A stretch of DNA of 64,000 nt from an uncultured Candidatus Saccharibacteria bacterium (GCA_964477745.1 CAYZEI010000002.1:5054-69053); one strand, 5' to 3'. Counted from the first letter of the stretch, positions 3,301 to 59,165 are shown. A program made the numbers and translations. Notes: generated from the sequence alone by a model not told the origin.

Positions 3301-3825
3301 TTGAATTTCAATAAACAATCTGCCACCGCTAAACATGGCCAAATATTTTTCCAAAACAACTTGGGCTTCAGCCTGGGGCCGATTCATTACCGCGCGGGCG
3401 ATTTCGCCTCGCTGACAGCCGGAAAGACATATTAGTCCTTCGCTATGCTGGGCTAAAAAGTCCGTATCAATTCTGGGTTTATAGTAAAAGCCATCTAAGT
3501 GACCGGCAGTGGTAATTTGAATTAAATTTTTATAACCGATTTCATTTTGAGCCAGAAGGGTTAAATGAAAATAATCTGAATCCGTTTTCCCTTCTTTGTC
3601 AGCCATCCCGCGAGGGGAGATGTAGGCTTCAAGGCCAATTATGGGTTTAATTTTTTGTTCCCGACATTTATTATAAAATTCAATGGTTCCGTACATGGTC
3701 CCATGGTCGGTAATGGCCAAACTGTCCATACCTAACTCCTTGGCCCGCTCAACCAGCGGGTCAATTTTGGACAAACCGTCCAATAAGGAATAATGACTAT
3801 GGCAATGTAGGTGAGTAAAGTTCAT
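322..3825 (-). CDS. dnaE: DNA polymerase III alpha subunit
   Basis: 1167 aa. N-terminal PHP domain (HLHCHSHYSLLDG...ITDHG). Polymerase core motifs along the full length. Confidence 0.95.
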   Translation of the reverse strand: MNFTHLHCHSHYSLLDGLSKIDPLVERAKELGMDSLAITDHGTMYGTIEFYNKCREQKIKPIIGLEAYISPRGMADKEGKTDSDYFHLTLLAQNEIGYKNLIQITTAGHLDGFYYKPRIDTDFLAQHSEGLICLSGCQRGEIARAVMNRPQAEAQVVLEKYLAMFSGGRLFIEIQRNSRTPDPKEEELNNKLIALAKANSLPVVATADCHYIYPEDFEAQDLLVCIGTGRTVNDADRLDMRAYDLSLKSPERMMELFSDIPEAVENTQKVAGMCNLEIKIDQRYFPQVEIPEGFTTAEYLVKITYEKALPLYGQNGVIPDAIKERIDYELNIICKKGFDTYFLMVADVVEGAHSIGAITNTRGSAAGSIVGRILGITNVDPLYYELPFERFLTMHRPTPPDIDLDIADNRRDEAIAYITQKFGKEKVAQIITFGTMMARAAVRDVGRALGVAYSKCDQIAKMIPLGKQGFQMTLDKAIEMNAELKEIAEHDPETNRILTIAKKLEGCARHASVHAAGIVITPTALTDYSPLQKEPDGERIITQYDMYALDVNASSHAIGVVKLDLLGIRNLSILENAVNIVQKRHNTKIDIYNLPHPDPKTFKLLSEGLTFGVFQLGSSGMTRHLKELQPSSIFDIMAMIALYRPGPMQFIDEYIKRKHNPSLISYFDPAFEKILRRTYGILVYQDDLLTIAHDLAGYTWEEVDKFRKAVGKKIPEEMAKQKMKFIQGCPETSKWTFKKAEDVWAWIEPFAAYGFNKAHSASYSVVSYQTAYMKANYPVEFMAALMTAESGDEDKIYEAVEDCKALGIAVLPPDVNESLGDFTVVDEKTIRFGLNAIKNLGSDVIRQIIDVRFKIEDGNAEALESTDKKSTPFSSLEDFLTRAYTKSFNKRSWEALSKAGALDAFGERGQLLNNTEEVLEFVRENSRSISNGQSSLFGASMLKAQLKLRPSDPATKEEMLLWEKEHLGMYVSAHPLDVHRKVLGNMRSVKSLNLDELGANVVMGGLVTKLKRTLTRKNDPMAFFTLADLTGSVEVLVFPKVMEKALPYLLDDKIVQVSGRLSDKDEEFKLIAEDIKELPNDELYGMALTEMEKNKQIILHMTSLASMEALNKIKSILEKHPGNVQVFLSVGSGRAAKKIKTQTQVGMSNELMTELRELPEVVMIDVA

Positions 3826-3946
3826 TGGACAGAATTAAGTAAAATTGACCAAAATTGCTTCAGAATTGACTGAAAATTTTGGCAGGGTGGGATAATGATA
3901 ATATTTCAACCAATTCCTATCTAGCATACCAAAAAATCACAAGTTT

Positions 3947-3955
3947 TGCTATAAT
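3947..3955 (+). promoter_or_regulatory. Extended -10 promoter element (TGcTATAAT) upstream of the 3982 gene
   Basis: TGnTATAAT match about 27 nt upstream of the start codon. Confidence 0.35.
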
Positions 3956-3981
3956 CTAATTATCTTATCTTAAACAAAAAT

Positions 3982-8150: not shown

Positions 8151-8190
8151 AAACCCACTATAATACGATATAGTATTATAGTGGGTTTTA
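8151..8190. terminator. Bidirectional terminator hairpin between convergent genes (cccactataatac-gatata-gtattatagtggg)
   Basis: 13-bp perfect stem flanked by A- and T-runs. Confidence 0.6.
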
Positions 8191-14687: not shown

Positions 14688-14762
14688 TTAAACACCTCAA
14701 CCATCGGTTGAGGTGTTTAAATATCTAACCCCACTTCGATACGTCGACGTATCGAAGTGGGG
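14688..14762 (+). terminator. Two consecutive hairpins (aaacacctcaacc...ggttgaggtgttt; 34-bp perfect palindrome ccccacttcgatacGTCGACgtatcgaagtgggg)
   Basis: Perfect inverted repeats on direct reading. Confidence 0.5.
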
Positions 14763-19984: not shown

Positions 19985-20086
19985 AAATTTGGTATATGAA
20001 TATAATTATTTCTGTTTTAATAATAGTTCTAAGATTCCTTACAACATCCTGCCATAAAAAACCATAGCTGATGTTATGGTTTTTTA
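19985..20086 (+). ncRNA. Candidate small RNA or 3' module A2 (TATAAT 20001-20006; terminator ccatagctgatgttatgg + T6)
   Basis: Paralogue of A1. Confidence 0.3.
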
Positions 20087-20119
20087 TGTTTAGAACCCAA
20101 AGTGCTATACTCAACATAT

Positions 20120-20365
20120 ATGAAAATTCAAGTCTTAGGTTCGGGTTGCGCTACTTGCAAAAAATTGTTTGAAATCACCAAAACCGCGGTCAAGGAAATG
20201 GGAATGACTGAGGAAGTGGAATATATTACCGACTTTCAACAAATCCTCAATATGGGCCTTATGTCCAGTCCGGTTTTGGCAGTGGACGACAAACCGGCTC
20301 TGGTTGGTTTTGTGCCGAACGTAGCGGAAATTAAAAAAGCGATTTTAAAAGCAAGTACAAAATAA
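20120..20365 (+). CDS. Thioredoxin-fold 'redox-active disulfide protein 2'-like small protein
   Basis: MKIQVLGSGCATCKKL CxxC motif. Typically partnered with a DUF318-type permease. Confidence 0.6.
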   Translation: MKIQVLGSGCATCKKLFEITKTAVKEMGMTEEVEYITDFQQILNMGLMSSPVLAVDDKPALVGFVPNVAEIKKAILKASTK

Positions 20366-21333
20366 TGAATCTATTTTACCCAATCCAATTATTTTCAGAC
20401 TGGCTGGCTTTTACGGTGTTTAAACTGGCGCCCAAAAGTTTAGCAGGGGAGGCAGTGAATTTTTTTATTTTTGATTCCATAAAAATATTTATTCTGCTGG
20501 CAGTAATTATTTTTATAGTTTCTATTATCCGTTCCTACCTACCGCCGGAAAAAATTCGGAATATTCTGGCTCACAAAAACCAATACACAGGCAATGTAAT
20601 AGCTTCTTTGCTTGGTATTGTAACGCCGTTTTGTTCCTGTTCAGCCATTCCTTTATTTTTAGGCTTTGTGCAAGCCGGAGTGCCTTTGGGCACAACTTTT
20701 TCTTTTTTAATTGCCTCACCAATGATAAACGAAGTGGCCTTAGTTTTGCTACTTGGACTTTTCGGTTGGAAAATCGCCGGCCTCTATATTATTAGCGGAC
20801 TTTTTATTGCCATTATTTCCGGAATAATAATTGGAAAATTAAAAGTAGAAAGCTTGGTTGAATCTTTTGTATATCAGAACACTGTACCGGGTAATGCAAG
20901 CCTACCCACACTGACAACAAAAGAAAGAATTGTTTACGCCCGCAATTATACTTTAGAAATTTTAAAAAAAGTTTGGCCATATATTTTAGTTGGTATTGGT
21001 GTAGGTGCTTGGATACATGGTTACGTACCCACTGACTTTTTGGCCAAATATGCGGGAAACGGTAAATGGTACGGCGTGCCTTTAGCTGTCTTAATTGGCA
21101 TTCCACTTTATTCCAATGCCGCCGGGGTAATCCCATTAGTTTCCGCACTCACTGAAAAAGGAGTCAGTATGGGCACCACCTTGGCTTTTATGATGTCCGT
21201 TACCGCGCTGTCCTTACCGGAATTTATGATCCTAAAAAAAGTTATGAAAACAAAACTCCTCTTTATTTTCGCCGGAATTGTTGCTATAGGGATTACACTA
21301 ACCGGATATTTGTTTAATTTTATTTTAAAATAA
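20365..21333 (+). CDS. Permease (YraQ/DUF318-like)
   Basis: Polytopic membrane protein with a CSCS motif. Start overlaps the upstream stop. Confidence 0.65.
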   Translation: MNLFYPIQLFSDWLAFTVFKLAPKSLAGEAVNFFIFDSIKIFILLAVIIFIVSIIRSYLPPEKIRNILAHKNQYTGNVIASLLGIVTPFCSCSAIPLFLGFVQAGVPLGTTFSFLIASPMINEVALVLLLGLFGWKIAGLYIISGLFIAIISGIIIGKLKVESLVESFVYQNTVPGNASLPTLTTKERIVYARNYTLEILKKVWPYILVGIGVGAWIHGYVPTDFLAKYAGNGKWYGVPLAVLIGIPLYSNAAGVIPLVSALTEKGVSMGTTLAFMMSVTALSLPEFMILKKVMKTKLLFIFAGIVAIGITLTGYLFNFILK

Positions 21334-21349
21334 CCATCTCCTGAACCTA

Positions 21350-21378
21350 TTTAAGCCCTTGATTTTTCAAGGGTTTTT
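21350..21378 (+). terminator. Terminator (cccttga-ttttt-caaggg + T6)
   Basis: Hairpin with T-run. TGtTATTATAAT follows. Confidence 0.6.
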
Positions 21379-21420
21379 TGTTATTATAATTTGTTAAATC
21401 GATCCAAAGGAGGATCAAAA

Positions 21421-21819
21421 GTGCCGTTTAAAAACTGCATAGTTCACACGGATATCACACCCGAAGGCACGAAAGTGCTTCGGGTAACCGGAAGGCTCGT
21501 CTGCCAAGCCGACAGGCATGAACTCAACAAGAATGCCGATCAGCTTGCGCCGAGAAAGGGCGCTGGAGGACAAACTTACATCATTGATTTGTTGGCGGTC
21601 AAAGCGATTGCCGAGCCTGGACTCACAGCACTCAAGTTCGCAACCAACCGGTTTGTCAGCTTCGGGAACAGAGTGGCAATCTGCGCCGAGAAAAAGCTCG
21701 TAATCCCTGAATGGTATGTGATACTCCCATTCAGCGTGCCGGTGTACCACTCCTTTCAGGAAGCAGTGGACTCACTCAATACCAAAACGGAGGTCACTGA
21801 TGGACGCCGTGGGGATTGA
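21421..21819 (+). CDS. STAS-domain (anti-sigma-factor-antagonist-like) protein in GC-rich islet
   Basis: GTG start with AAAGGAGGA SD. IIDLLAVKAIAEPGLTALKFA aligns with the SpoIIAA DLSGVTFMDSSGLGVL block. The Ser position is E/A, so it is non-phosphorylatable. Confidence 0.4.
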   Translation: MPFKNCIVHTDITPEGTKVLRVTGRLVCQADRHELNKNADQLAPRKGAGGQTYIIDLLAVKAIAEPGLTALKFATNRFVSFGNRVAICAEKKLVIPEWYVILPFSVPVYHSFQEAVDSLNTKTEVTDGRRGD

Positions 21820-22063
21820 GGTCATGCGCTTGATGGTGTTCATTCACCACAGTAGCTGGGCGGTTGCGGTGGTGGGCGTCGCTGGAGTATTATCGTTCTT
21901 GCTTGCAACTCGCACCCAAAATGCAACTCTTAGACGCACCATTTTCGCTATCAGTGCCGTCGCGATAACGTTCTTTATGGCAACAGGCTTGTCGGTTGGC
22001 CCAATGGACGACTGGCAACACCAGCACGGCACCTGCCTGCTTGAGTCCCTGAAAAAAAAGTGA
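21800..22063 (+). CDS. Small 2-TM membrane protein, translationally coupled to the STAS gene
   Basis: ATGs overlap (ACTGATGG). GGAGGT SD inside the upstream gene. Confidence 0.35.
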   Translation: MDAVGIEVMRLMVFIHHSSWAVAVVGVAGVLSFLLATRTQNATLRRTIFAISAVAITFFMATGLSVGPMDDWQHQHGTCLLESLKKK

Positions 22064-22136
22064 CCAAGCACGCAACACACCAAACTCGAGGCAGGGACGC
22101 ACAACGCGACCCCGCCTCTTAACATATATATAAAAA

Positions 22137-22532
22137 TTAGTTACAAGAAGAATATTCTCCCAAGCAAACCTTTTTACCGGATAATTGCAAATCTACCAAA
22201 CCCCCGGCGTTGCGAACGTTTGTAAAACCGTTTTTCTGCAATATTTGCATTGCCTGCCCGGCTCGGTTTCCACTACGACAATATAAAGCAATTGGAGCAT
22301 CTTTAGGCAAGTCCGGCAGTTGCCCTTGTTGTATTTTTGCTAAATCCAAATGCACCGCCCCATTTAAATGTTCAGTTTGCCATTCTTCATCTGTTCTAAC
22401 ATCCACAAAAATTTCCGCTTGGCTCAAGACTTGCTGGTTTACTGGGCTATTTTTTTCGCCCCCACGTAAAACAACCCCTCCAATTACTACGACAACCAAA
22501 ATAATTAACCCAATGATAATTTGTTTTTTCAT
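22137..22532 (-). CDS. Rhodanese-domain sulfurtransferase with N-terminal TM/signal
   Basis: Active-site loop YCRSGNRAG. Confidence 0.75.
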   Translation of the reverse strand: MKKQIIIGLIILVVVVIGGVVLRGGEKNSPVNQQVLSQAEIFVDVRTDEEWQTEHLNGAVHLDLAKIQQGQLPDLPKDAPIALYCRSGNRAGQAMQILQKNGFTNVRNAGGLVDLQLSGKKVCLGEYSSCN

Positions 22533-22596
22533 ATCTTTTTTAATTATTCTTAGAAATATTTAAATACCACTTGACAAGATTTTGTAGATTATATAT

Positions 22597-22618
22597 CATT
22601 CAAGTAATCACTTGAATG
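22597..22618 (+). promoter_or_regulatory. Candidate ArsR operator (cattcaagt-aatc-acttgaatg) in the divergent promoter region
   Basis: 9-4-9 inverted repeat immediately upstream of arsR, next to TTGACA. Confidence 0.45.
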
Positions 22619-22634
22619 TAATCTATCCTATATT

Positions 22635-22943
22635 ATGGATCAACTAAAAATAAAAAGCAAGTTGCTAACCCCGGACCTAACCAAAAAGGCCCGGCTATTA
22701 GAACTGGCGGGGGACGAGACCAGAATTCGGATTCTTTGCACTTTGTTTGAACATAACAATGTTTGCGTCTCTGACATCGCCAAAAGCTTAAAAATGAGCG
22801 TAGCAGCCGTTTCCCACCATTTACAGCTTATGCAAGAACACAAGCTAACATCATCCATCCGAGACGGAAAAAATATTTGCTATTCACTAAATAAAAATCC
22901 ATTAACAAAATATTTAAGGCAATTTATTTGCCATAAGGAGTAA
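22635..22943 (+). CDS. ArsR/SmtB-family transcriptional regulator
   Basis: Winged-HTH block RIRILCTL...VSDIAKSLKMSVAAVSHHLQLM. Confidence 0.8.
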   Translation: MDQLKIKSKLLTPDLTKKARLLELAGDETRIRILCTLFEHNNVCVSDIAKSLKMSVAAVSHHLQLMQEHKLTSSIRDGKNICYSLNKNPLTKYLRQFICHKE

Positions 22944-22947
22944 AAAT

Positions 22948-23184
22948 ATGTCTCAACACAATGTAACCATTTATTCTACCCCGACTTGTTCATACTGCAT
23001 TATGAGCAAAAATCTTTTTGATAAAATGGGCGTACAATATAAAGATATAGATGTCAGCAAAGACCATGCCGCGGCCATGGAAATGGTTAAAAAAAGTGGG
23101 CAAACCGGAGTGCCGGTAATAGATATAGACGGCAATATTCTTGTCGGTTACCAACCCGCTGCCTTTGACCAGTTATTAAAATAA
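22948..23184 (+). CDS. Glutaredoxin-like protein
   Basis: CSYC active site. Thioredoxin fold of about 78 aa. Confidence 0.8.
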   Translation: MSQHNVTIYSTPTCSYCIMSKNLFDKMGVQYKDIDVSKDHAAAMEMVKKSGQTGVPVIDIDGNILVGYQPAAFDQLLK

Positions 23185-23189
23185 ATTAC

Positions 23190-24089
23190 ATGAACACAAA
23201 AAATGAAGGTGCCCTGGATCGCCTAATCAGAATTCTTATTGGGGAAGTCCTACTGCTGTCCGGATTTTTCTGGCTTTGGGGCACTTGGCAAATTATTGCT
23301 TATGCTTTAGGCGTAGTTGCTGTATTTACCGCCTTTAGCGGATTTTGTTTGTTGTATAAACTTTTAGGAATATCCACAAATCAAAACCCTTTAGGAAAAG
23401 CCTCCAAAATTTTCAGTTTTGTTTTATATTTGTTAATAATCATTCTGCCTGTAGTTGGAAGCTACTATAGTAATTTCTTTACAAAAAAAATCTTTTTGGA
23501 AGATTACAGCAAAATGAATGAACCTTATAAGCAAACTTTGTTTTTTACCGGGCAGGACAAAAGACAAGAGTCTAAGGATAATTACCAAAAATTGGTTTTA
23601 GAGTTTGAAATTTTTTCTAAAAAATATTCTGCCTTTCACCCTTATATAATTAGAAAAGATGCTCAATTTAATAATGACTTGAAAAAAGTTTCGCAAACCA
23701 TAACCAAACTTTCCGACACAATAAACACCGGTAATTTAAAAGATGCCCACTTAACCCTGGAAACTGTGCGTCCGGTATTCCAAGATATTCTTAAACGCAA
23801 CAATTTTTCTATGCTTGCAGTGTCCTTGGTAGACTTTCATGATTCTATGGAAGTTGTTATAGCCGCAGCGGATAAAAAAGATTCAGCCGGGGTAATTTCT
23901 GCCTATGCTGATGCCGACGCCAAACTCAAAGCTGTAGAAGCGGAATCCAATGACAGCGAAATTCAAACCATTCGCCAAAAATTGGAAGAAACTTTAAGCT
24001 TAGCTAAAGAAGGAAAGGCCGACAGTCTTTCTGCCAAAGCCGGCGAACTCAAATCCGCCTTTGTAAAAGTCTACCTCAAAAGGGGATAA
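23190..24089 (+). CDS. Hypothetical membrane protein (N-terminal TMs, C-terminal soluble domain)
   Basis: ORF and hydropathy only. Confidence 0.5.
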   Translation: MNTKNEGALDRLIRILIGEVLLLSGFFWLWGTWQIIAYALGVVAVFTAFSGFCLLYKLLGISTNQNPLGKASKIFSFVLYLLIIILPVVGSYYSNFFTKKIFLEDYSKMNEPYKQTLFFTGQDKRQESKDNYQKLVLEFEIFSKKYSAFHPYIIRKDAQFNNDLKKVSQTITKLSDTINTGNLKDAHLTLETVRPVFQDILKRNNFSMLAVSLVDFHDSMEVVIAAADKKDSAGVISAYADADAKLKAVEAESNDSEIQTIRQKLEETLSLAKEGKADSLSAKAGELKSAFVKVYLKRG

Positions 24090-24114
24090 TCTTGTAATAA
24101 TTCTAAGGTAATAG

Positions 24115-24160
24115 TCAAAAACCTCCTGTATTTGCAGGAGGTTTTTTGGTATAATTAATT
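24115..24160 (+). promoter_or_regulatory. Terminator (aaacctcctg...caggaggttt + T6) fused to extended -10 (TGgTATAAT)
   Basis: On direct reading. Confidence 0.6.
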
Positions 24161-24163
24161 ATC

Positions 24164-24382
24164 ATGGAAAAACAAGGGAATCAGGGATTTGCTTTTATAG
24201 GGTTAATAATAACTTTAATAATTATAGTTATTTGGGCGTCTTTGACGTATAAAAATTCAAAGGATAAACAAAGCGTAATGAAAGCCGGCAGTAATGCTAT
24301 TGAGCAAACCAAGCAAAACAATGCTCGGCAATATGAAAACCAAATTGAAATCCAAAATAATTTAAATAGTATAGAAAATTAA
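24164..24382 (+). CDS. Small single-TM protein
   Basis: 72-aa ORF with a hydrophobic N-terminus. Confidence 0.4.
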   Translation: MEKQGNQGFAFIGLIITLIIIVIWASLTYKNSKDKQSVMKAGSNAIEQTKQNNARQYENQIEIQNNLNSIEN

Positions 24383-24383
24383 T

Positions 24384-25649
24384 ATGAAAACCAAACTCAC
24401 GGCCATTTTCTCTTTTGTCCTATTAAACTTTTTTGCTTTTGCCCAGTACGCTGTTGCCCGCGGTGGCGGAGGGGGTTCAAGCGGTGGCGGAGGGGGAGGA
24501 GGCGGGGGTGGTAGCAGTTTTAGTGTTCATACAACAGGTTCTTCCGGCTCTGGCTCAGGCAGTTTTAGTCCTTGGATGCTCTTGTTTCTAATTATTCCAG
24601 TCGCTGGGATAATTATAGCCTTTAAAAACAAACAGCGGCTTTTGGCTTTGGCCAAAATGAACGATGAAAACATTATCGCTAAAAATCATCTGGATAGAAA
24701 TGCTCTATATGCCGAGGTTGAGAATCTTTTCCAAAATTTCCAGAAAGCCTGGAGCGAATTTGATTTTAAAACTATTGAGCAGTTAGTCACTCCGGAATAT
24801 TACAAACGTATGGTGCTGGAACTTTCGGTGCTACAAAACGAAAACCGCGCCAACTTAATGAGTAACGTAATTGTGACGGAAATGTTTGTCATTGGTGAAG
24901 AGCAACCGGGCGAAACCACACAAAAACTTAACTTGCAAATTAGTGCCTCTGCGCATGACGTACTCCAAGACACAAAAAATAACAAAGCCCTATTTACCGA
25001 CAACAGCAGTTTTACCGAGTACTGGCACTTAGTGCAAACACCGGACAGAAGATGGGTCTTGGATTTTATTACCCAAGAAACGGAAGACCTTAATATGTTC
25101 GAAAAAGGCATTGCGGAATTTTCCCGGAAAAATAATTTTTACTATGATGCGGACTTTGGCTGGCTAATGATGCCGGACAAAGGCGTAATATTTAACAGAA
25201 CCAATTTTGGCAAAAGCGATATTAACAACCATGTAATTGGTTATTTCCGGGAAAAGATTGTGGAATTTTACACTTACATTCCGGACACCTATTCCAAGAA
25301 CCCGGAAAATTACCTTGTGGCCCAAGCTATTTTACCGAAAAGCTATAATAACATCTTAATAAAGAAAAAGAAGTTTTTAAGCATGCCGATTTGGGGCTTA
25401 AAAAAAATGTCTTTGGAAAGTGTGGACTTTAATAATAAATTTTCCATTTGGGCTCACGAAGAGGACCAAATTAATTCCTTGGAACTTTTAACCCCAAACT
25501 TCATGGAAAAAATTTACAACTTGCCGTTTGAACTCAACATTGAACTGGTCGGCAATACACTCTATTTTTACACCAAAGACAGGGGAGCAGACAACTACCC
25601 GCAAATGCTGGAAATAATTTCCTGGGCGTTTGATGAAATGAAAATGTAA
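24384..25649 (+). CDS. Membrane-anchored protein with Gly/Ser-rich linker and possible Tim44-like domain
   Basis: Signal peptide, (G)n(S)n tract, TM, then a DFKTIEQLVTPEYYKRMV... block. Confidence 0.45.
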   Translation: MKTKLTAIFSFVLLNFFAFAQYAVARGGGGGSSGGGGGGGGGGSSFSVHTTGSSGSGSGSFSPWMLLFLIIPVAGIIIAFKNKQRLLALAKMNDENIIAKNHLDRNALYAEVENLFQNFQKAWSEFDFKTIEQLVTPEYYKRMVLELSVLQNENRANLMSNVIVTEMFVIGEEQPGETTQKLNLQISASAHDVLQDTKNNKALFTDNSSFTEYWHLVQTPDRRWVLDFITQETEDLNMFEKGIAEFSRKNNFYYDADFGWLMMPDKGVIFNRTNFGKSDINNHVIGYFREKIVEFYTYIPDTYSKNPENYLVAQAILPKSYNNILIKKKKFLSMPIWGLKKMSLESVDFNNKFSIWAHEEDQINSLELLTPNFMEKIYNLPFELNIELVGNTLYFYTKDRGADNYPQMLEIISWAFDEMKM

Positions 25650-25663
25650 CAAAAAAACCCTCC

Positions 25664-25689
25664 GACATTCTGCAGAATATGAGAGTATT
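25664..25689 (+). repeat. 26-bp direct repeat copy 1 (gacATTCTGCAGAATATGagagtatt) containing a 12-bp perfect palindrome and the start codon of the HTH gene
   Basis: Identical to 25974..25999. Confidence 0.6.
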
Positions 25690-25975
25690 ATTTAAAAATA
25701 CTTTTATGCAAAAAACTTATAAACAACTAGAAAGATACTTTAAAGGCGTGGCAAACCACAGACGGATTGAGATTTTATTTTTGGTCAAAAAAACCATAAG
25801 CATTTCCTTAATCCAAATCTCCAACCAACTTGGTTGTAATTTTAAAACAATTTCCGAACATACAAGAAAATTAACCCAGGCCGGGTTATTAAACAAAAGA
25901 TATAATGGCAGGGAAGTATTTCACTCCCTATCACCCTATGGAAAAAAGTTTGTAGCATTCATTAAATCATTCTGA
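25679..25975 (+). CDS. Small winged-HTH (ArsR-like) transcriptional regulator
   Basis: NHRRIEILFLV...SLIQISNQLGCNFKTISEHTRKLTQAGLL. Confidence 0.55.
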   Translation: MRVLFKNTFMQKTYKQLERYFKGVANHRRIEILFLVKKTISISLIQISNQLGCNFKTISEHTRKLTQAGLLNKRYNGREVFHSLSPYGKKFVAFIKSF

Positions 25976-25999
25976 CATTCTGCAGAATATGAGAGTATT
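25974..25999 (+). repeat. 26-bp direct repeat copy 2, immediately upstream of gpmI
   Basis: Identical to copy 1, including the ATGagagta. Confidence 0.6.
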
Positions 26000-26002
26000 T
26001 TT

Positions 26003-27532
26003 ATGGACAAAAAACAACAAATTGCTTTAATAATTTTAGACGGTTGGGGGCATAGGGAAAGCACCCAGCATAATGCCATTGCCGAGGCAAAAACGCCTTT
26101 TTACGATGAGCTTTTAGCTAAATATCCACACACACTCATTAACGCTAGCCAAGAGCATGTGGGGTTACCGGCTGGGCAAATTGGCAACAGCGAAATTGGC
26201 CATATGACCATGGGTAGTGGCCGGGTATTAAACAGCGATCTGATAAAAATTTCTCAAGCGCTAACCGCCGGGGACTTTAAAAAAAATCCGGCTTTTGCCG
26301 AGCTGTTTAGCCACGTTAAAAAACATAATTCTACCTTGCATATTTTTGGTCTGGTTAGCCCGGGCGGAGTCCACAGCCATCAGGAACATTTACATGGGTT
26401 TTTAAAATCTGCAAAAGATGAGGGAATAGACAAAATTGCCATCCACGCCTTTACCGACGGCCGAGATGTGGCGCCAAAAAGTGGCGCAGAATATTTAAAA
26501 AATTTGGAAGTCTTAATTGAGGAACTGGGTGTGGGATACATCGCCACTATTTCCGGAAGATTTTTTGCTATGGACCGCGACAAAAATTGGCACCGCGTAG
26601 CTCAAGCCGAAGATGCCATCTTTCACGGTAAAGGCAAAACTATAAAAAATAAAAAGCCTTCGGAAATTGTTTCGGAATTATACAAAGAGGGGGTCATTGA
26701 CGAACTGCTGGAACCGGTAGTACTACTGGACGACAGTGGGCGCGACTATAAAGTGCAAAAAAATGACGGGATTTTCTTTTTTAATTTTCGTGCGGATCGC
26801 GCACGCCAGTTAAGTGAAAAAGTTTTAGAGCGAAAAACCAGTCACAACTTATGCTTTGTCACCTTAACTCAATACGACAAGACTTTTGAAAGTCTGGTAG
26901 CTTTTCCGCCGAACGATGCGGAGACCACGCTCTCTGCGGAAATATCCCAAGCCGGACTTTCGCAGTCACATATTGCGGAAACGGAAAAATATCCGCATGT
27001 AACATATTTTTTCAATGCCGGGCGCGAAGAACCCCATAAAAATGAGCGCCATATTTTAGTGGAAAGCCGGCGGGATATTAACACTCACGACCAAGCCCCG
27101 GAAATGCGTGCAAAGGAAATTGCGGACAAGGCCATAGAGCGCATTGAAGCAGGGGATGACTTTTTGGTTATTAACTTTGCCAATGCCGACATGGTTGGTC
27201 ACACGGCCAACAAACCGGCCATTATAATTGCCGTAGAGACCGTAGACCGAGAATTAAAACACGTAGTGGAAAAATTACTTAGCAAAAACGGGATTGCCAT
27301 AATTACCGCAGACCACGGCAACGCGGAAGTTAATGTAGACGAACTCACAGGCGAAAACCATACCGCCCACACCACAAGCCTCGTCCCATTCATCCTTGCC
27401 TCCAAGCTAGAAGCAATAAGCTATAAGCTATCAGCTACCTCCGGGTCTCTCGCCGATATCGCCCCCACCATTCTAGAACTCCTGCAAATAAAAAAACCCG
27501 TCCAAATGACGGGTAGAAGTCTTCTATCTTAA
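26003..27532 (+). CDS. gpmI: 2,3-bisphosphoglycerate-independent phosphoglycerate mutase
   Basis: 509 aa. ILDGWG...EIGHMTMGSGRVL metal-binding motifs. Confidence 0.95.
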   Translation: MDKKQQIALIILDGWGHRESTQHNAIAEAKTPFYDELLAKYPHTLINASQEHVGLPAGQIGNSEIGHMTMGSGRVLNSDLIKISQALTAGDFKKNPAFAELFSHVKKHNSTLHIFGLVSPGGVHSHQEHLHGFLKSAKDEGIDKIAIHAFTDGRDVAPKSGAEYLKNLEVLIEELGVGYIATISGRFFAMDRDKNWHRVAQAEDAIFHGKGKTIKNKKPSEIVSELYKEGVIDELLEPVVLLDDSGRDYKVQKNDGIFFFNFRADRARQLSEKVLERKTSHNLCFVTLTQYDKTFESLVAFPPNDAETTLSAEISQAGLSQSHIAETEKYPHVTYFFNAGREEPHKNERHILVESRRDINTHDQAPEMRAKEIADKAIERIEAGDDFLVINFANADMVGHTANKPAIIIAVETVDRELKHVVEKLLSKNGIAIITADHGNAEVNVDELTGENHTAHTTSLVPFILASKLEAISYKLSATSGSLADIAPTILELLQIKKPVQMTGRSLLS

Positions 27533-27706
27533 TTTAGTTTCTGTCCTGAACAAAGTCGAAGGGGAAAAGTTTGATTGTTTGATAAAAAAATGTCCGACCC
27601 GCAACAGTGGACACAAAACTTTGACTTGCGCCAAAGTGTTCTGTCTAGAATTAGACCGACGTTGGTCGGCTTTATTCATTTCACTGTTGCAGGTGGGTGG
27701 CTAGGA

Positions 27707-27910
27707 TCAGCCTTCTTCGACATCGGCTCCGACGGGCGCGTGGCCCCAGCGATCTGCGCCAGAACCAATGACTTTTGCTGGCGCCGCGGATGTGGCTGCC
27801 GTTTCTGAAACGGCAGGCTTAGCTGTTTGTGGTTGAACCGGCAAGGAGCCGGCGTCATCTGGACTGCCACCAGCCACGAAAGCTGGTCTTTTGCGATTAT
27901 GCATGCACAC
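27707..27910 (-). CDS. Ala/Pro/Gly-rich low-complexity small protein in GC-rich islet (coding uncertain)
   Basis: GTG start with AAGGAGGG SD 7 nt upstream. Competing ORFs lie in other frames and on the other strand. Several hairpins. Confidence 0.3.
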   Translation of the reverse strand: MCMHNRKRPAFVAGGSPDDAGSLPVQPQTAKPAVSETAATSAAPAKVIGSGADRWGHAPVGADVEEG

Positions 27911-28064
27911 GACGTGACCCTCCTTGGAACCTGCTATACTAAAGCTAATTTAAGGAAAATTTTGAGTTATGTCAATACCAAATTGACGAGAGATTTAAGA
28001 TTAGAAGTTTGAATAAAATAAAAAGTTTGTTATAATAAATTTAAATAATTTTAAAAATAAAAAT

Positions 28065-28562
28065 GTGGAAATAAAAAAAGCTAACCAATCGCAAGCCGGA
28101 TTTACTCTTTTGGAATTATTAGTGGTTATTGCCATTATTGGGCTATTGGCCGGGGTAGTCATGCTCGGCGTTAGCAGCGCCAGAGTTAAAGCTCGAGATG
28201 CCAAACGTTCCGGTGATATGCGCCAAATGATTACCGCGCTTGAACAGTACCATATTACACACGGAATTTACCCAACCGGTAGCGGTTCTATTGCCAGTGT
28301 AGGGAATGGAGCAAGCTTAGATGACCCCACGGCTATGGATTTTACCGTTGAACCGATGATCCCGAATTATATTCCTATGTTCCCTAAAGCACCCACCCCG
28401 GCAGACGGCAGTTGCCAAGGGACAAGTGGCAGGGGAGGAAATAATTATTGGTACGATGTTGATGACGATGGTTTTTCCTACACCATGACTTTCTGTTTAG
28501 GAAAAAACGTCAGTGACTGGTCCGAAGGAATTCGTTATGCCACTCCTGAGGGAGTGAGGTAA
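28065..28562 (+). CDS. Type IV pilin / pseudopilin (prepilin N-methylation domain)
   Basis: QAG|FTLLELLVVIAIIGLLAG class-III signal. Confidence 0.8.
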   Translation: MEIKKANQSQAGFTLLELLVVIAIIGLLAGVVMLGVSSARVKARDAKRSGDMRQMITALEQYHITHGIYPTGSGSIASVGNGASLDDPTAMDFTVEPMIPNYIPMFPKAPTPADGSCQGTSGRGGNNYWYDVDDDGFSYTMTFCLGKNVSDWSEGIRYATPEGVR

Positions 28563-28587
28563 AATAAACCTATATAAAAATCCTTGC

Positions 28588-28618
28588 GGTGTAACGCAAG
28601 GATTTTTTGTTATCGTTA
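28588..28618 (+). terminator. Terminator (aaatccttgcg-gtgtaa-cgcaaggattt + T)
   Basis: Hairpin plus T-run. Confidence 0.6.
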
Positions 28619-28790
28619 TAATTCTAGTATTGTTATTGCCTGCCACCCTTTACTTCACTCTTGCCTTATGTGCTTTACCCCAAGCGTACATAGATTTTAA
28701 AATTGGCTCCAGGGTTTTCCCATAAGCAGTGGGGGAGTATTCCACCTTGGGCAGAACGCTTTTATGTGAAAACTTTGTTATACTATACTA

Positions 28791-30005
28791 ATGAATCTGT
28801 TTACTAACCTCAAAACTCCAAAATTTATAATTTTGTTCACCGTGTTTGTGGACATTTTAGGATTGGGTATTGTTATTCCGGTATTACCTTTTTACATTAA
28901 GTCTTTCGGCGTGTCCGACTTTATTGTCACTGCCTTGTTTGCGGTTTTCTCATTATTCTCATTTATAAGCGCGCCATTTTTAGGTGCTTTGTCTGACCGT
29001 ATTGGCAGAAGACCGGTGCTAATTGCCAGCATTACCAGCACCGCAATCGGCTGGTTAATTTTTGCCGCAGCACGAACTGTACCGTTAATGTTTTTGGGCC
29101 GAATTATTGACGGTAGTGCTGCCGGAAATATTTCTACCGCTCAAAGTTACTTGGTGGATATTTCCAAAGATGCAAAAGAACGTTCTGCTAACTTAGGGCT
29201 AATCGGCGCGATGTTTGGTATTGGTTTAACTATTGGACCATTAATCGGCGGAACTTTAGGTTCTATTTCTCACACCCTGCCGTTTTGGGTGGTTGGGGGT
29301 TTAGCCGCTTTAAATGCGACCATGGCTTATTTTTGGCTTCCGGAAACTCATCATACCAGAGACACCAGCAAGCCCATTGAACTTAATCCAATGGCGCCAA
29401 TTATTCGAGCTACTAAAAACCCTAAGCTCTTGCCCGGATATATTTCTTGGTTTTTGTTCGGCTTGGCCGCAGCCAGTCAACAGGCTGTCTTCTCCTTATA
29501 TTTAAATCACGTTTTTGGCTTTAAAGAATTTGTTGCCGGATTATTTTTTACCTTTATCGGGATTGCCTTGTCTTTAAACCAGGCAATATTTATAAAACGG
29601 TTTTGGATAAAAAGATTCAAAGAACCACAACTAGAACTGTACATGATGTTGGTTTTTGCGGTGGGCTTCTTATTTATGGATATTAAATATTTAGCCTTCT
29701 TTATTTTTGGTGTACTATTGGTTACTATTGGCCAATCGGTCTTGCGTGTGGTTATGTCCAGCCAAATGGTTGGAGCCAGCTTGGGCCAGCAGGGAGAAAC
29801 TTTAGGAGTTATGACTTCGGTAATGTCTTTAAGTATGATTGTCGGTCCTCTTACTGCCGGTTGGTTGTTTATAAAAAATCCCAGTTTACCGTTTTTATTT
29901 AGCTCAATGGCCGTGGCGCTGGCATTTGTATTGATTTTGTTAAACAGAAAAAAACTCGCCGCGGAAAATGCAGACGAAAACACACCGACCAGTTTCTCAA
30001 TTTAA
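28791..30005 (+). CDS. MFS transporter
   Basis: 12 TM helices. GALSDRIGRRPVL motif A. Confidence 0.85.
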   Translation: MNLFTNLKTPKFIILFTVFVDILGLGIVIPVLPFYIKSFGVSDFIVTALFAVFSLFSFISAPFLGALSDRIGRRPVLIASITSTAIGWLIFAAARTVPLMFLGRIIDGSAAGNISTAQSYLVDISKDAKERSANLGLIGAMFGIGLTIGPLIGGTLGSISHTLPFWVVGGLAALNATMAYFWLPETHHTRDTSKPIELNPMAPIIRATKNPKLLPGYISWFLFGLAAASQQAVFSLYLNHVFGFKEFVAGLFFTFIGIALSLNQAIFIKRFWIKRFKEPQLELYMMLVFAVGFLFMDIKYLAFFIFGVLLVTIGQSVLRVVMSSQMVGASLGQQGETLGVMTSVMSLSMIVGPLTAGWLFIKNPSLPFLFSSMAVALAFVLILLNRKKLAAENADENTPTSFSI

Positions 30006-30010
30006 TTTGT

Positions 30011-30724
30011 ATGAAGATGTTACTACAACTAAAACGTGACATTCGTAAATTGGCCAATCCTGCAAAAGCTAAAGTTTTGGCCGGGTTTTTTAAAACTGGC
30101 CCCGGACAATACGGGGAAGGGGATATATTTTTAGGAATTACCTTGCCCTTACAGCGCCAGTTAGTTAAACAATACTGGCGGGATTTAACCTTGGCGGACG
30201 CTGAGAGCTTATTAAAATCTAAACTCCACGAAGAACGCCTAATCGCCCTTTTAATTTTAGTTAAAAAATTTACCACCTCTGAAATCTTTAATCAAAAATC
30301 CAAAATCTATAAGTTCTATCTCTCCCACACTAAATATATTAACAATTGGGACTTGGTAGATTTATCCGCCCAGAATATTGTAGGGGAATATCTAATCGAT
30401 AAAAATCGCAGCGTACTTTATAAACTTGCCAAATCTAAAAATCTCTGGGAACGACGCATTGCTATTTTGGCAACTTTAACTTTTATTAAAAATCGCGACC
30501 CGAAAGATTCTTTGGCAATTGCAAAAATTCTGCTCTCCGACCGGCACGATCTTATTCATAAAGCTGTCGGATGGATGCTTAGAGAAATAGGCAAACGTTG
30601 CAACGAAAAAACCCTCACGGATTTTCTGGATAAAAATGTATTAAAAATGCCCCGTACAACATTACGCTATGCCATTGAACGACTTCCGGAAAAAAATAGA
30701 CTCCACTATCTGCATCTAACATGA
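30011..30724 (+). CDS. DNA alkylation repair protein (AlkC/AlkD-like HEAT-repeat glycosylase family)
   Basis: Family-like blocks (WDLVD, LWERRIAI, IHKAVGWMLRE). Confidence 0.65.
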   Translation: MKMLLQLKRDIRKLANPAKAKVLAGFFKTGPGQYGEGDIFLGITLPLQRQLVKQYWRDLTLADAESLLKSKLHEERLIALLILVKKFTTSEIFNQKSKIYKFYLSHTKYINNWDLVDLSAQNIVGEYLIDKNRSVLYKLAKSKNLWERRIAILATLTFIKNRDPKDSLAIAKILLSDRHDLIHKAVGWMLREIGKRCNEKTLTDFLDKNVLKMPRTTLRYAIERLPEKNRLHYLHLT

Positions 30725-30727
30725 GTT

Positions 30728-30765
30728 ATTCTACGCGACTCTGTAATTACATAGTCGCGTAGAAT
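30728..30765. repeat. P-family 38-bp palindrome copy 1 (attctacgcgactctgtaattacaTagtcgcgtagaat, one mismatch) + T-run; probable terminator
   Basis: Homologous to 37853..37890 and 59076..59113. Confidence 0.6.
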
Positions 30766-30834
30766 TTTTTAAACTCAGGGCATCTTCGGGCAATTTTTGT
30801 TATAATACAAGCAAAGCCTTAAAGAAACTCCAAA

Positions 30835-31509
30835 ATGGACTACATTGCTGAAATTGCTAAAATTAAATTACCTTTTACCCCCGTTGATCTACCCTTTGTC
30901 AAACGGGTGTTTGATATTATTGTGAGTTTTTTTATTATCTGTCTCTTGTCACCGCTAATTGTGGTGATATTGGTCTTGTTCTATGTGGAAGAAATTTTTT
31001 TGGCTTCCAGCCGTGGCCCGCTATTTTATAAAGAAACCAGAATCTCCAAAGGTTTGCCATTTAAAGTTTTTAAATTCCGGATTTTCAAAACCACAGCCAG
31101 TGCCGGTTATTTAAAACAACACGGTATTATTCAAACCAAAGAACTGGAAGGGGACAATAAAAACATGACCCTCACCGGGCGATTGCTTAAACAAATCTAT
31201 ATGGATGAGCTCCCGCAAATTTATAATGTAATCAAAGGCGACATGACACTGGTGGGACCTCGTCCTTCCAATGAAGTGGTAACTTACGAAGACGGCATGG
31301 CAGGAAGGTTTCAGCGGTTTTTATTTAAAGGCGGTCTTACCGGCCCTTTCCAGGCACAAAAAGATTCCCCGACCAGACCAGTGCAAAGCGAGGCGGATAT
31401 TGAATATATTTTATTTTGTAAAAATAATCCCGGCTGGAAAATTATTTTAAAAGATCTGCACATAATTGGCCAAACAATTTTCACCGTACTGCGGGCTAAG
31501 GGGATATAA
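30835..31509 (+). CDS. Bacterial sugar transferase (polyprenyl-phosphate glycosyl-1-phosphate transferase family)
   Basis: FDIIVSFFII...PLFYKETRISKG...DELPQIYNVIKGDMTLVGPRP. Confidence 0.8.
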   Translation: MDYIAEIAKIKLPFTPVDLPFVKRVFDIIVSFFIICLLSPLIVVILVLFYVEEIFLASSRGPLFYKETRISKGLPFKVFKFRIFKTTASAGYLKQHGIIQTKELEGDNKNMTLTGRLLKQIYMDELPQIYNVIKGDMTLVGPRPSNEVVTYEDGMAGRFQRFLFKGGLTGPFQAQKDSPTRPVQSEADIEYILFCKNNPGWKIILKDLHIIGQTIFTVLRAKGI

Positions 31510-31527
31510 TTTTAAACCGATACTATA

Positions 31528-32655
31528 ATGGAACCATTAGCCAATAAAATTAGGCCCACTTCCTTAGAGACTTTTGTCGGGCAAAAACATTTGGTGGGCG
31601 AGGGCAAGCCCTTACGGCAGGCGATTGAAAATAAACACCTGTTTAGTTTTTTGTTTTGGGGTCCACCGGGAGTAGGAAAGACCACACTAGCCAGAATTTA
31701 TGCCAAAGCAGTTAATGCCGAATACCACGAGCTGTCCGCGGTGTCCGCCGGCAAAGACGACATTCGGGCAATTGTAGATAAACCAACCATGATGGGTCAG
31801 CCGAAAATTTTATTTTTGGACGAAATCCATCGCTTCAACAAAGCCCAACAGGATTTTTTATTACCTTACGTGGAATCGGGCAAACTCACTTTAATTGGCG
31901 CCACCACAGAAAATCCCAGTTTTGAAGTTATCCCGGCCCTACTTTCCCGCTGTCGAGTTTTTGTACTTAATGAACTTAGTAGTGACGAGGTAGGGGAAAT
32001 TATTAAACGATCAAAAGTCAAAATTACCAAAGAGGCCACTGCATGGCTTATTGCCCTGTCAAATGGTGATGCCAGACAAGCCCTGACTATGATAGATAAC
32101 TGTTTAAGTCTTTATGACAAACTAACCATTGAGAATTTAAAAAATACTTTACAATCAAAATTTTTACGGTACGATAAAAAAGGCGAGGAACATTACAATA
32201 TAATTTCCGCGTTTATAAAAAGCATGCGAGCCGGCCAAGCCAGTGCCGCTATGTATTATCTAGCCCGCATGGTGGAAGCAGGGGAGGACCCTAAATTTAT
32301 TGCCCGGAGAATGGTAGTTTTTTCCAGTGAAGATGTTGGGCTGGCCCAACCTACGGCCTTGGTGGTGGCTAACGCGGTTTTTGCCGCTTGCCTGCAAATT
32401 GGTTATCCGGAATGTGCTATAAACCTTGCTCACGGCGTGGCTTATTTAGCAAATTGCAAAAAAGATCGTAGCGCCTATAATGCTTTAAGATCCGCCCAGG
32501 AAGACGCAAAAAATTTAGGCAATTTGCCCGTGCCCTTGAAATTACGCAACGCTTCCACTAAACTAATGAAAGATTTAGGCTACGGTGAGGGTTACGAAAA
32601 ATACGATTCAGACGATTACCTCCCCAAAGAGCTTAAAGGTAAAAAATATTTTTAA
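31528..32655 (+). CDS. rarA: Replication-associated recombination protein A (AAA+ ATPase)
   Basis: Walker [10 protein letters not shown], Walker B FLDEIHRF. MgsA C-terminal domain. Confidence 0.9.
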
Positions 32656-37849: not shown

Positions 37850-37852
37850 TAT

Positions 37853-37890
37853 ATTCTACGCGACTCTGTAATTACAGAGTCGCGTAGAAT
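37853..37890. repeat. P-family palindrome copy 2 (perfect 38-bp, centre TAATTA)
   Basis: attctacgcgactctgtaattacagagtcgcgtagaat. Confidence 0.6.
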
Positions 37891-37947
37891 CATTTATAGA
37901 CAAATAAAAAATGCACGAGCGTGCATTTTTTATTTTAAGAAAATAAT

Positions 37948-59045: not shown

Positions 59046-59165
59046 AAAAACCGCTCTGCGAGAGCGGTTTTTACTATTCTACAAGACTCTGTAATTACAG
59101 AGTCTTGTAGAATCCTTTAATAATATTCATGAGACATAAAATGCGCGGCCGCGCATTTTATGTCA
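59046..59165. repeat. Three consecutive palindromes downstream of folA: aaaaaccgctct-cgc-agagcggttttt; P-family copy 3 (59076..59113, attctacAAgactctgtaattacagagtcTTgtagaat); cataaaatgcGCGGCCGCgcattttatg
   Basis: P copy 3 differs from copies 1 and 2 by paired compensatory changes that keep perfect dyad symmetry. Confidence 0.6.

Follow-up and report, generated by a model that had tools for sequence, protein, structure and literature searches.

The 64,000-nucleotide (nt) stretch of DNA analysed here, referred to as the window, comes from an uncultured Candidatus Saccharibacteria bacterium (GCA_964477745.1, CAYZEI010000002.1:5054-69053). In front of gpmI, the gene for the cofactor-independent phosphoglycerate mutase, it carries a small gene for a putative winged-helix regulator, which we call hth, and this gene is flanked by an exact 26-nt direct repeat. 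Comparison of this locus with its relatives leads us to regard the repeats as the matching parts of two copies (O1 and O2) of one predicted four-hexamer operator that bracket the regulator gene. We consider it probable that O1 and O2 are the paired operators of an ArsR/SmtB-fold autorepressor of the Patescibacteria, and that gpmI is controlled together with hth.

A search of the whole window located the sequence GACATTCTGCAGAATATGAGAGTATT without mismatch at positions 25664-25689 and 25974-25999 of the plus strand. No further match with up to three mismatches is present in the window, and 100 dinucleotide-preserving shuffles yielded no match; the direct repeat that a sequence-only reading of this DNA had reported at both positions is therefore real and far beyond chance. 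Similarity between the copies extends to 39 nt at 87% identity (25654-25692 vs. 25964-26002), and both 26-mers contain the perfect 12-bp palindrome ATTCTGCAGAAT, whose matches with two mismatches elsewhere in the window are few and at chance level. The full unit was revealed by the relatives: each 26-mer makes up most of a 32-bp palindrome composed of four hexamers, ACATTC-nn-ACATTC-nnnn-GAATGT-nn-GAATGT, i.e., two direct and two inverted half-sites. The predicted upstream operator O1 (25657-25688; ACCCTC-CG-ACATTC-TGCA-GAATAT-GA-GAGTAT) agrees with the family consensus at 19 of the 24 hexamer positions and begins 8 nt past the stop codon of an upstream DUF3137-like gene; the first repeat copy (25664-25689) comprises the part of O1 that is common with O2, plus 1 nt. 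The predicted downstream operator O2 (25967-25998; TCATTC-TG-ACATTC-TGCA-GAATAT-GA-GAGTAT), with which the exactly matching second copy (25974-25999) overlaps, agrees at 20 of 24 positions, and its left arm contains the two C-terminal codons of hth (Ser-Phe) together with the stop codon. The distance of 4 nt to the gpmI start codon previously given for the second copy holds for the right end of the 32-bp site, whereas the 26-mer itself ends 3 nt (26000-26002) in front of this ATG. No site with at least 17 of the 24 hexamer positions other than O1 and O2 occurs in the 64-kb window.

Evidence that the bracket is a conserved genetic arrangement comes from two sets of loci. A scan of the genome collection with the GpmI protein gave 80 loci, among which only L001 (GpmI 88% identical) and L002 (71%) also encode an upstream hth; the syntenic contigs L081 and L082 were found through the closest hth homologue (P0002, 85% identity), and the DNA of L081 is about 86% identical to the window over 22936-27577. 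Both sites are present in L081/L082, L001, and L002, with conserved hexamers and with differences in the flanks and in some spacer bases. Close relatives with the same gene pair have therefore neither lost the repeat nor let it diverge, and this retention of both sites supports the suggestion that the repeat is an operator associated with the winged-helix protein. Whether gpmI genes without hth are accompanied by a single repeat had also been asked: none of the 78 gpmI loci lacking hth carries a site of the type found in the window (type A), and 77 of them are without any copy, while the remaining one, L003, possesses a single variant palindrome. Altogether, 658 kb of gpmI loci hold sites only beside hth (L001, L002), apart from this one variant.

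The second set was obtained by a metagenome scan with the hth protein alignment in which the DNA motif was not used; it returned 80 loci and, together with other hth searches, 78 unique loci. A site was called present when at least 19 of the 24 hexamer positions were matched, and O1 was sought within 130 bp upstream of the start codon. By this measure, 65 of the 73 unique loci that could be judged possess O1 and 74 of 76 possess O2, regardless of the nature of the downstream gene, and most sites score 22-24 of 24. In the family alignment of the sites, the hexamer positions are conserved to 95-100%, and the spacers and the central tetranucleotide vary. The position of O2 is mostly fixed, with its centre about 10 nt past the last Phe codon, so that its left arm codes for (T/S)-F and the stop codon, or for T-F-Q-H-S when the stop codon follows 9 nt further on. 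In a minority of proteins with a different C-terminus, O2 sits just behind the stop codon, and O2 is hence not a coding artefact. A 105-amino acid (aa) homologue, P0003, continues past the usual ...KSF and is apparently translated through the whole O2 palindrome (..KSFWYSAEYQNII..); judged from this sequence, the DNA site seems to be kept even where it is coding. The bracket spans about 75 lineages, including distant Patescibacteria with unrelated neighbouring genes. A single match to the hth module was found among 2.9 million viral contigs, and matches in PHROG were only weak.

The mechanically called open reading frame (ORF) of 98 aa, which extends from an ATG at 25679 inside the first repeat copy to the stop codon at 25973-25975, exists as described, but the notion that this copy supplies the start codon of the gene is not supported. 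About 120 homologues are mostly 88-89 aa long, carry the N-terminus MKTAKQLERYFKG, and cover 89-91% of the 98-aa ORF; on the basis of these lengths and N-termini, the true start is the ATG at 25706. The corrected hth gene (25706-25975, plus strand), whose TGA stop codon (25973-25975) lies inside O2, would encode an 89-aa type-A regulator with the ArsR/SmtB fold, as indicated by Pfam, the homologues, a structural model and Foldseek, and the coding status of the nine-codon 5′ extension MRVLFKNTF (25679-25705, plus strand) is unsupported. The ATG in the first copy arises from the half-site GAATAT followed by G, and the consensus half-site GAATGT likewise holds an ATG; the homologues P0006 (MLEYS...) and P0011 (MLECS...) have been over-extended by gene callers from this same operator ATG.

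More than 850 homologues were recovered, and all named ones belong to the Patescibacteria (Doudna-, Berkel-, Sung-, and Pacebacteria, WWE3, Parcubacteria), with 65-85% identity. Profile matches are weak: in Pfam, HTH_27 scores 26.4 bits (cut-off 22.2) and HTH_5 scores 23.4 bits, barely over its cut-off of 22 bits, and the NCBIfam ArsR/SmtB model NF033788 gives 42.1 bits, under its cut-off of 55 bits. A phmmer search against PDB has HlyU as its best match (E 2e-5). The AlphaFold model of hth, with a predicted local distance difference test (pLDDT) score of 87, displays the topology α1-α2-α3-α4-β1-β2-α5 (helices 5-12, 15-28, 35-42, 46-58, and 77-87; strands 62-67 and 70-75), in which α4 is the recognition helix, and its top Foldseek matches in PDB are HlyU, CadC, SqrR, NolR, CzrA, and SmtB. 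The model thus assigns the hth protein to the ArsR/SmtB winged-helix fold. Among the residues that could form an inducer site, neither α3N/α5 metal ligands nor a CXC motif nor a Cys pair was found in the hth family: α5 reads GKKFxxFIKTF and lacks His, Asp, or Glu ligands, and a single Cys before the recognition helix is only semi-conserved, being A, K, G, or S in several members and A in the type-B paralogue described below. In these sequence features, the protein, which has no recognisable sensor site, resembles those ArsR/SmtB members that do not sense metal, such as HlyU and NolR.

The strongest support for hth as the binder of O1 and O2 comes from this paralogue. The recognition helix of type-A proteins (N-x-K-T-I-S-E-H-T-R/K-R/K-L) is almost invariant, as are the hexamers of their sites. 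L119 and L129, in which it stands beside type A, were the first loci to show the type-B protein; its recognition region is GANEKTLGEHTRRLY, and its identity to the protein of the window amounts to 62%. A search with it retrieved 2427 proteins at E ≤ 1e-10 (type A included), and its top matches are 85-96% identical across Uhrbacteria, Sungbacteria, Minisyncoccales, and Parcubacteria, a degree of identity across several classes of Patescibacteria that is unusual for a transcription factor. Genes of type B are likewise bracketed in at least five lineages (L170, L172, L174, L176/L177, L169, L119, L129), and their operator is a variant of that of type A (ACATCC-TT-ACAAAC-nnnn-GTTTGT or GAATGT-AA-GGATGT); the upstream site is followed by tgGTGTAtAAT and, 6-7 nt further on, by the ATG. 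Even where both types occur in one locus (L119, L129), each is flanked by its own variant, and this paralogue-specific covariation supports the view that proteins and operators of types A and B form cognate pairs. No type-B paralogue was found in the 64-kb window. Type-B genes (L129 2578-2886, L170, L172, L174, L176) recur beside genes for TspO, an S49 peptidase, and a PD-(D/E)XK nuclease.

The position of O1 suggests how such a protein could act. In the window, O1 is followed in turn by tattt, the −10-like hexamer AAAAAT (25694-25699, plus strand), actttt, and the ATG at 25706, so that the hexamer lies 5 nt past O1 and 6 nt before the start codon and O1 covers about −49 to −18. Equivalents of this −10 element stand at the same place in L081 (TAAAAT) and L001 (TGgTATAAT). 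Across the family, a −10-like hexamer of the TAnnnT type precedes the in-frame start codon by 5-8 nt, mostly 6, in 52 of the 67 unique loci with O1 (30 of these 52 with a TGn extension ahead of it), and the gap between O1 and this element is most often 5 nt (17 loci) or 14 nt (11 loci). From this geometry we infer a leaderless hth mRNA whose −35 and spacer regions lie under O1. Given this arrangement and the norm in the ArsR/SmtB family, binding of the protein to O1 should repress hth, and the gene should accordingly be negatively autoregulated.

The gpmI gene (26003-27532, plus strand; 509 aa), identified by matches to the Pfam domains iPGM_N (5e-74) and Metalloenzyme (8e-69) and by its synteny in L081/L082, L001, and L002, is separated from hth by an intercistronic region of 27 nt. 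Its ATG follows O2 at a distance of 1-4 nt in the window, L081, L001, and L002, and the likely gpmI ATG of L095 lies 14 nt past O2. This leaves too little space behind O2 for a promoter of the 5+6+6-nt type that follows O1, and gpmI is therefore most likely the second cistron of a predicted hth-gpmI transcript controlled at O1. Of the proposal that regulator and gpmI share an operator, the operator holds up; a specific dedication to gpmI does not, since gpmI is one of many downstream genes. The variant site of L003, a Doudnabacteria locus without adjacent hth, deserves separate mention: at 3939-3970 it has the type-B-like sequence TCATCC-TT-ACATTC-TTAA-GTATGT-AA-GGATGA, followed by tgtc-TAAAAT-ttaaaaat-ATG of gpmI. 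This arrangement suggests that gpmI of L003 is a target of a paralogous regulator and that gpmI can belong to such a regulon.

O1 and O2 resemble each other more closely within a locus than between loci. On average, 28.7 of the 32 positions are alike within loci and 26.3 between loci; at the eight variable positions, the corresponding values are 6.27 and 4.50, and the observed similarity was not attained in any of 5000 permutations. O1 and O2 have the same central tetranucleotide, also in orientation (TTGA vs. TCAA), in 56 of 64 loci, where 22.7 are expected. O1 and O2 evolve in concert within genomes throughout the family. Extra sites elsewhere in these loci can differ in their centre (L110, L116), which would favour local homogenisation over protein specificity; direct repeats spaced by about 310 bp might, for example, undergo gene conversion. 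The pair in the window, with 28 of 32 positions alike, corresponds to the family average, and its perfect 26-nt run requires one change relative to L081, L001, and the consensus, namely G-to-A at 25989, which turns the third O2 hexamer from GAATGT into GAATAT. This change also creates the ATG of a 13-codon out-of-frame ORF (MRVFLWTKNNKLL; 25989-26030, plus strand) that begins in this hexamer and runs across the gpmI start at 26003. The short ORF is present as had been noted, but L081, L001, and L002 either lack it or have it in a different frame; because it is not conserved and owes its existence to a change in the window lineage, we regard it as incidental.

The gene that follows O2 shares the strand of hth in 47 loci and lies on the other strand in 14, some of the latter being clearly convergent (e.g., L125), and hence O2 cannot solely be the operator of a downstream promoter. 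Glycolytic genes among the downstream neighbours are gpmI (in the clade of the window and in L095), the enolase gene (L090-L092), and pgk (L157); others encode glycosyltransferases, GNAT proteins, HI0933-like flavoproteins, RadC, OMP decarboxylase, SNase, TspO, DAC, CysRS, and an M16 peptidase. In other genomes, extra sites are present in intergenic regions, several with the same leaderless-type geometry of −10 element and ATG, and stand at genes for SNase (three loci in all), S49 peptidase, NUDIX, and Fic proteins. A Pfam analysis of 30 neighbour and target genes revealed recurring hints (gpmI/eno/pgk, SNase, TspO, S49) and no clear pathway, and we treat lower glycolysis and secreted nucleases as leads to the theme of the regulon, not as conclusions. 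Some extra operator copies share tens of flanking bases with one another or with O2 (L110 965 vs. 3259, L116 1373 vs. 5029, L152 1800 vs. 3344, L098 2753), which indicates that they are part of larger duplicated units. In L152, the hth stop codon directly precedes a tandem array (3262-3343) of an 8-nt unit (ACATTCTA; half-site plus spacer), behind which stands a complete operator; sites in L152 and L098 have in common a downstream motif resembling tctctaattcgcgcgaataggcgaatagttt.

In the mechanism that we favour, dimers of the hth protein, probably more than one per site, would bind O1 over the −35 and spacer regions of their own leaderless promoter and thereby bring about negative autoregulation; the protein would also bind O2, which overlaps its own stop codon. 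As second cistron, gpmI would be repressed at O1, and O2 might provide a second anchoring site (through cooperativity or looping), an intercistronic roadblock, or both, with the near-identity of O1 and O2 being kept by concerted evolution. A far broader version of this scheme is that of a master system extending throughout the Patescibacteria, in which type-A and type-B repressors of 88-95 aa, encoded in self-bracketed operator-gene-operator cassettes that the repressor bridges, place the downstream genes (gpmI, eno, pgk, secreted SNase-type nucleases, TspO, S49) under common control and in which local gene conversion, as a component of the mechanism, maintains the identity of the copies; we put this forward tentatively and think it rather doubtful as a whole.

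Several observations weigh against the favoured mechanism. The two sites of the window are weaker than the family consensus (19 and 20 of 24 positions), and the outer left hexamer of O1 is degenerate. Convergent downstream genes in some lineages show that O2 is not in general an operator of a downstream promoter, and the O1-to-O2 spacing of 299-472 bp exhibits no 10.5-bp helical phasing and lends no support to a phase-dependent loop. Moreover, the promoter-like sequence cTGACA-18-TATTTT overlaps O2, although its −10 element ends 1 nt before the gpmI ATG, and a hairpin would likewise be compatible with the modest mirror covariation in O1; the last two points lead to different explanations of the repeats.

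According to one of these, which corresponds to the shared operator of the sequence-only reading, gpmI has an independent promoter embedded in the repeat, with O2 as its operator. A promoter scan detected cTGACA-18-TATTTT at 25972-26001 and, over the first copy, ccGACA-18-TATTAT at 25662-25691; in L001 and L002, as in the window, a single nucleotide separates a TATwwT hexamer from the gpmI ATG. Elsewhere, O2 precedes a −10 element, 5 nt, and the ATG of the enolase gene (L090-L092), and gpmI of L003 has its own operator-plus-promoter. A −10 element so close to the start codon would, however, place the start of transcription about 6 nt inside the gpmI coding sequence, and there is no alternative start codon downstream, MDKKQQIALIILDGWG being aligned with the homologues from residue 1. 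The scan matches agree with the promoter consensus at 9 of 12 positions, their rate is near that of shuffled sequence (13 found vs. 8.4 expected), and the −10 element of hth that is common to the family lies elsewhere. We have set aside these sigma-70 matches over the repeats as real promoters, given the single nucleotide between the −10 and the gpmI ATG and the different position of the −10 in the family, and we regard an independent gpmI promoter within the repeat as unlikely.

A second possibility is that the palindromes act as RNA hairpins: O2 as a terminator, a stabiliser, or a hairpin coupling translation between the hth stop codon and the ribosome-binding region of gpmI, and O1 as a terminator for the gene upstream. 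In other lineages, perfect copies do fold strongly (−16.7 to −19 kcal/mol, z −6 to −8), the mirror covariation of O1 concerns the pairs 2-31, 4-29, and 8-25, and a T run follows 16 of 74 O2 sites. The copies in the window, in contrast, fold no better than shuffles (O1, z −0.5; O2, −8 kcal/mol, z −1.0); spacer positions are complementary in only about half of the sites, and mirror mismatches are not enriched in G-U pairs on either strand. Being upstream of the −10 element, O1 falls outside the predicted leaderless hth transcript, and ordinary terminators in these genomes are GC-rich hairpins with A/T runs; O2 was not reported by a terminator scan of the window. Mirror covariation is also compatible with a symmetric protein and with shared ancestry, and a hairpin leaves the exclusive link to hth and the paralogue-specific variants unexplained. 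We conclude that O1 and O2 are DNA sites rather than RNA hairpins, whose role here we consider decidedly improbable, although an auxiliary RNA function of O2 is possible in lineages with perfect palindromes. An Rfam scan of 24000-28500 at E ≤ 1 gave nothing relevant, and no tRNA gene was detected by a scan of 20000-32000.

It is highly improbable that the palindrome is bound by another, global protein for which hth is merely one target: extra sites do occur at other promoters in some genomes, but the only two sites in the 64-kb window flank hth, and the private operator variants of the type-A and type-B genes, found even side by side in L119 and L129, speak for the encoded proteins themselves. 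Hardly credible is the idea that the repeats are a target-site duplication or att-like scars left by insertion of an hth cassette upstream of gpmI: direct repeats flank one small gene, and the hth unit stands beside many different genes across lineages and has thus moved during evolution, but the same bracket in about 75 lineages, with distant Patescibacteria and unrelated neighbours among them, contradicts such a footprint by its conserved palindrome and position (O2 fused to the stop codon, O1 to the promoter), no integrase, transposase, or recombinase gene is found in the neighbourhood in the window, the sites are more conserved than their flanks, the module is essentially absent from viral contigs, and relatives without hth carry no single scar copy except for the variant, promoter-associated site of L003.

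Other features of the window were recorded alongside this analysis. A separate, canonical ArsR gene (22635-22943; HTH_5 E 7e-12) has its own inverted repeat at 22585-22630 and belongs to a unit at 22137-24089 with a divergent rhodanese gene and genes for a glutaredoxin and a YgaP-like membrane protein; this unit, which is syntenic in L081, looks like a sulfur/redox stress unit of the YgaV/YgaP or BigR type. A second, unrelated palindrome family, TATTCTACGCGACTCTGTAATTACAGAGTCGCGTAGAAT, is present at 30727-30766, 37852-37891, and 59075-59114. Its third copy bears a symmetric double change (CGCG to CAAG in one arm and CGCG to CTTG in the other), and a GC hairpin plus T run lies within about 10-25 nt behind every copy; the family could represent another operator or a small structured RNA. 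Related 32-nt palindromes with common outer arms stand at 8154-8185 (CCCACT-at-AATACG-atat-AGTATT-at-AGTGGG) and 14730-14761 (CCCACT-tc-GATACG-tcga-CGTATC-ga-AGTGGG). The spacer between gpmI and the pilin gene differs between the window (27578-28007) and L081 (5870-6691): that of L081 contains a 236-aa minus-strand gene without counterpart in the window, and the 430 nt of the window are without a long ORF and have a G+C content of 44% (vs. 40%).

The closest known systems are the ArsR/SmtB repressors with 12-2-12 inverted-repeat operators, for which negative autoregulation is the norm. The metal-responsive members SmtB, CzrA, and CadC as well as the non-metal proteins HlyU, NolR, and SqrR/BigR share with hth the fold and the format of a small, dimer-type winged-helix protein; common is also a long, imperfect inverted repeat that carries two half-site-like elements in each arm and overlaps the promoter of the own operon; here it has the layout 14-4-14 and lies 5 or 14 nt upstream of the −10 element. 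The hth protein differs from this family in its score below the NCBIfam cut-off and in its lack of metal-ligand residues and of a Cys pair, and the system differs in the ACATTC operator, in the second copy fused to the stop codon, in the predicted leaderless mRNA, and in its restriction to the Patescibacteria at high identity (65-85% for type A, 85-96% for type B).

Autoregulators that loop DNA between several operators are the lambda cI protein between OR and OL, the lac system with O3 at the 3′ end of lacI together with O1, and the gal system with OE and OI. What they share with hth is a pair of cognate operators, a few hundred bp from each other, that enclose or overlap the regulator gene or its end, with scope for cooperative occupancy and tight autoregulation; at hth, however, the O1-to-O2 spacing is set by gene length and not helically phased, tetramerisation and looping are conjectural, and O2 is a full-strength copy in direct orientation that evolves in concert with O1. 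The C proteins of restriction-modification systems are Xre-type helix-turn-helix regulators that first activate and then repress through C-boxes of two adjacent palindromes. Like hth as predicted here, they are small autoregulators with an operator of about 35 bp and four half-sites immediately upstream, a leaderless transcript, and a co-transcribed downstream gene, but their fold and half-site topology are different, they have no second operator downstream, and hth is not linked to restriction-modification genes. CggR of Bacillus, a SorC/DeoR-type protein of 340 aa that has a sugar-phosphate sensor domain and acts at direct-repeat operators, is encoded by the first gene of cggR-gapA-pgk-tpi-pgm-eno; hth, which precedes gpmI, enolase, or pgk genes, shares with it the place of a repressor gene at the head of an operon with lower-glycolysis genes, and a CggR-DNA structure appears at rank 20 of the Foldseek matches through its winged-helix domain. 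In contrast to CggR, hth is a bare 88-aa winged-helix protein, and most of its neighbours are not glycolytic. A literature search that included the literal motif cores found no description of the hth family or its motif, with subscription-only papers lying outside its coverage. The system departs from the known examples in its 14-4-14 layout of ACATTC hexamers, in the predicted leaderless promoter, in a predicted second operator that is fused to the stop codon and evolves in concert with the first, and in the restriction to the Patescibacteria combined with high conservation and with paralogues that have distinct operators.

A large share of bacterial diversity belongs to the Patescibacteria, whose genomes are tiny and encode very few transcription factors and whose members are mostly uncultured; to our knowledge, almost nothing has been learned about their gene regulation. 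A sharply defined 32-bp operator and a regulator with 65-96% identity across classes make the regulon searchable in any genome, and an 88-aa protein together with 32 bp of DNA is a simple reagent pair for the biochemistry of organisms that are mostly uncultured. For annotation, it matters that gene callers often begin hth genes at the ATG inside the operator. The regular placement of the −10 element, 6 nt ahead of the ATG, also speaks for leaderless transcription as a common feature of these lineages of the Patescibacteria. For the bacterium from which the window derives, the prediction is that its phosphoglycerate mutase would be under the control of the hth repressor.

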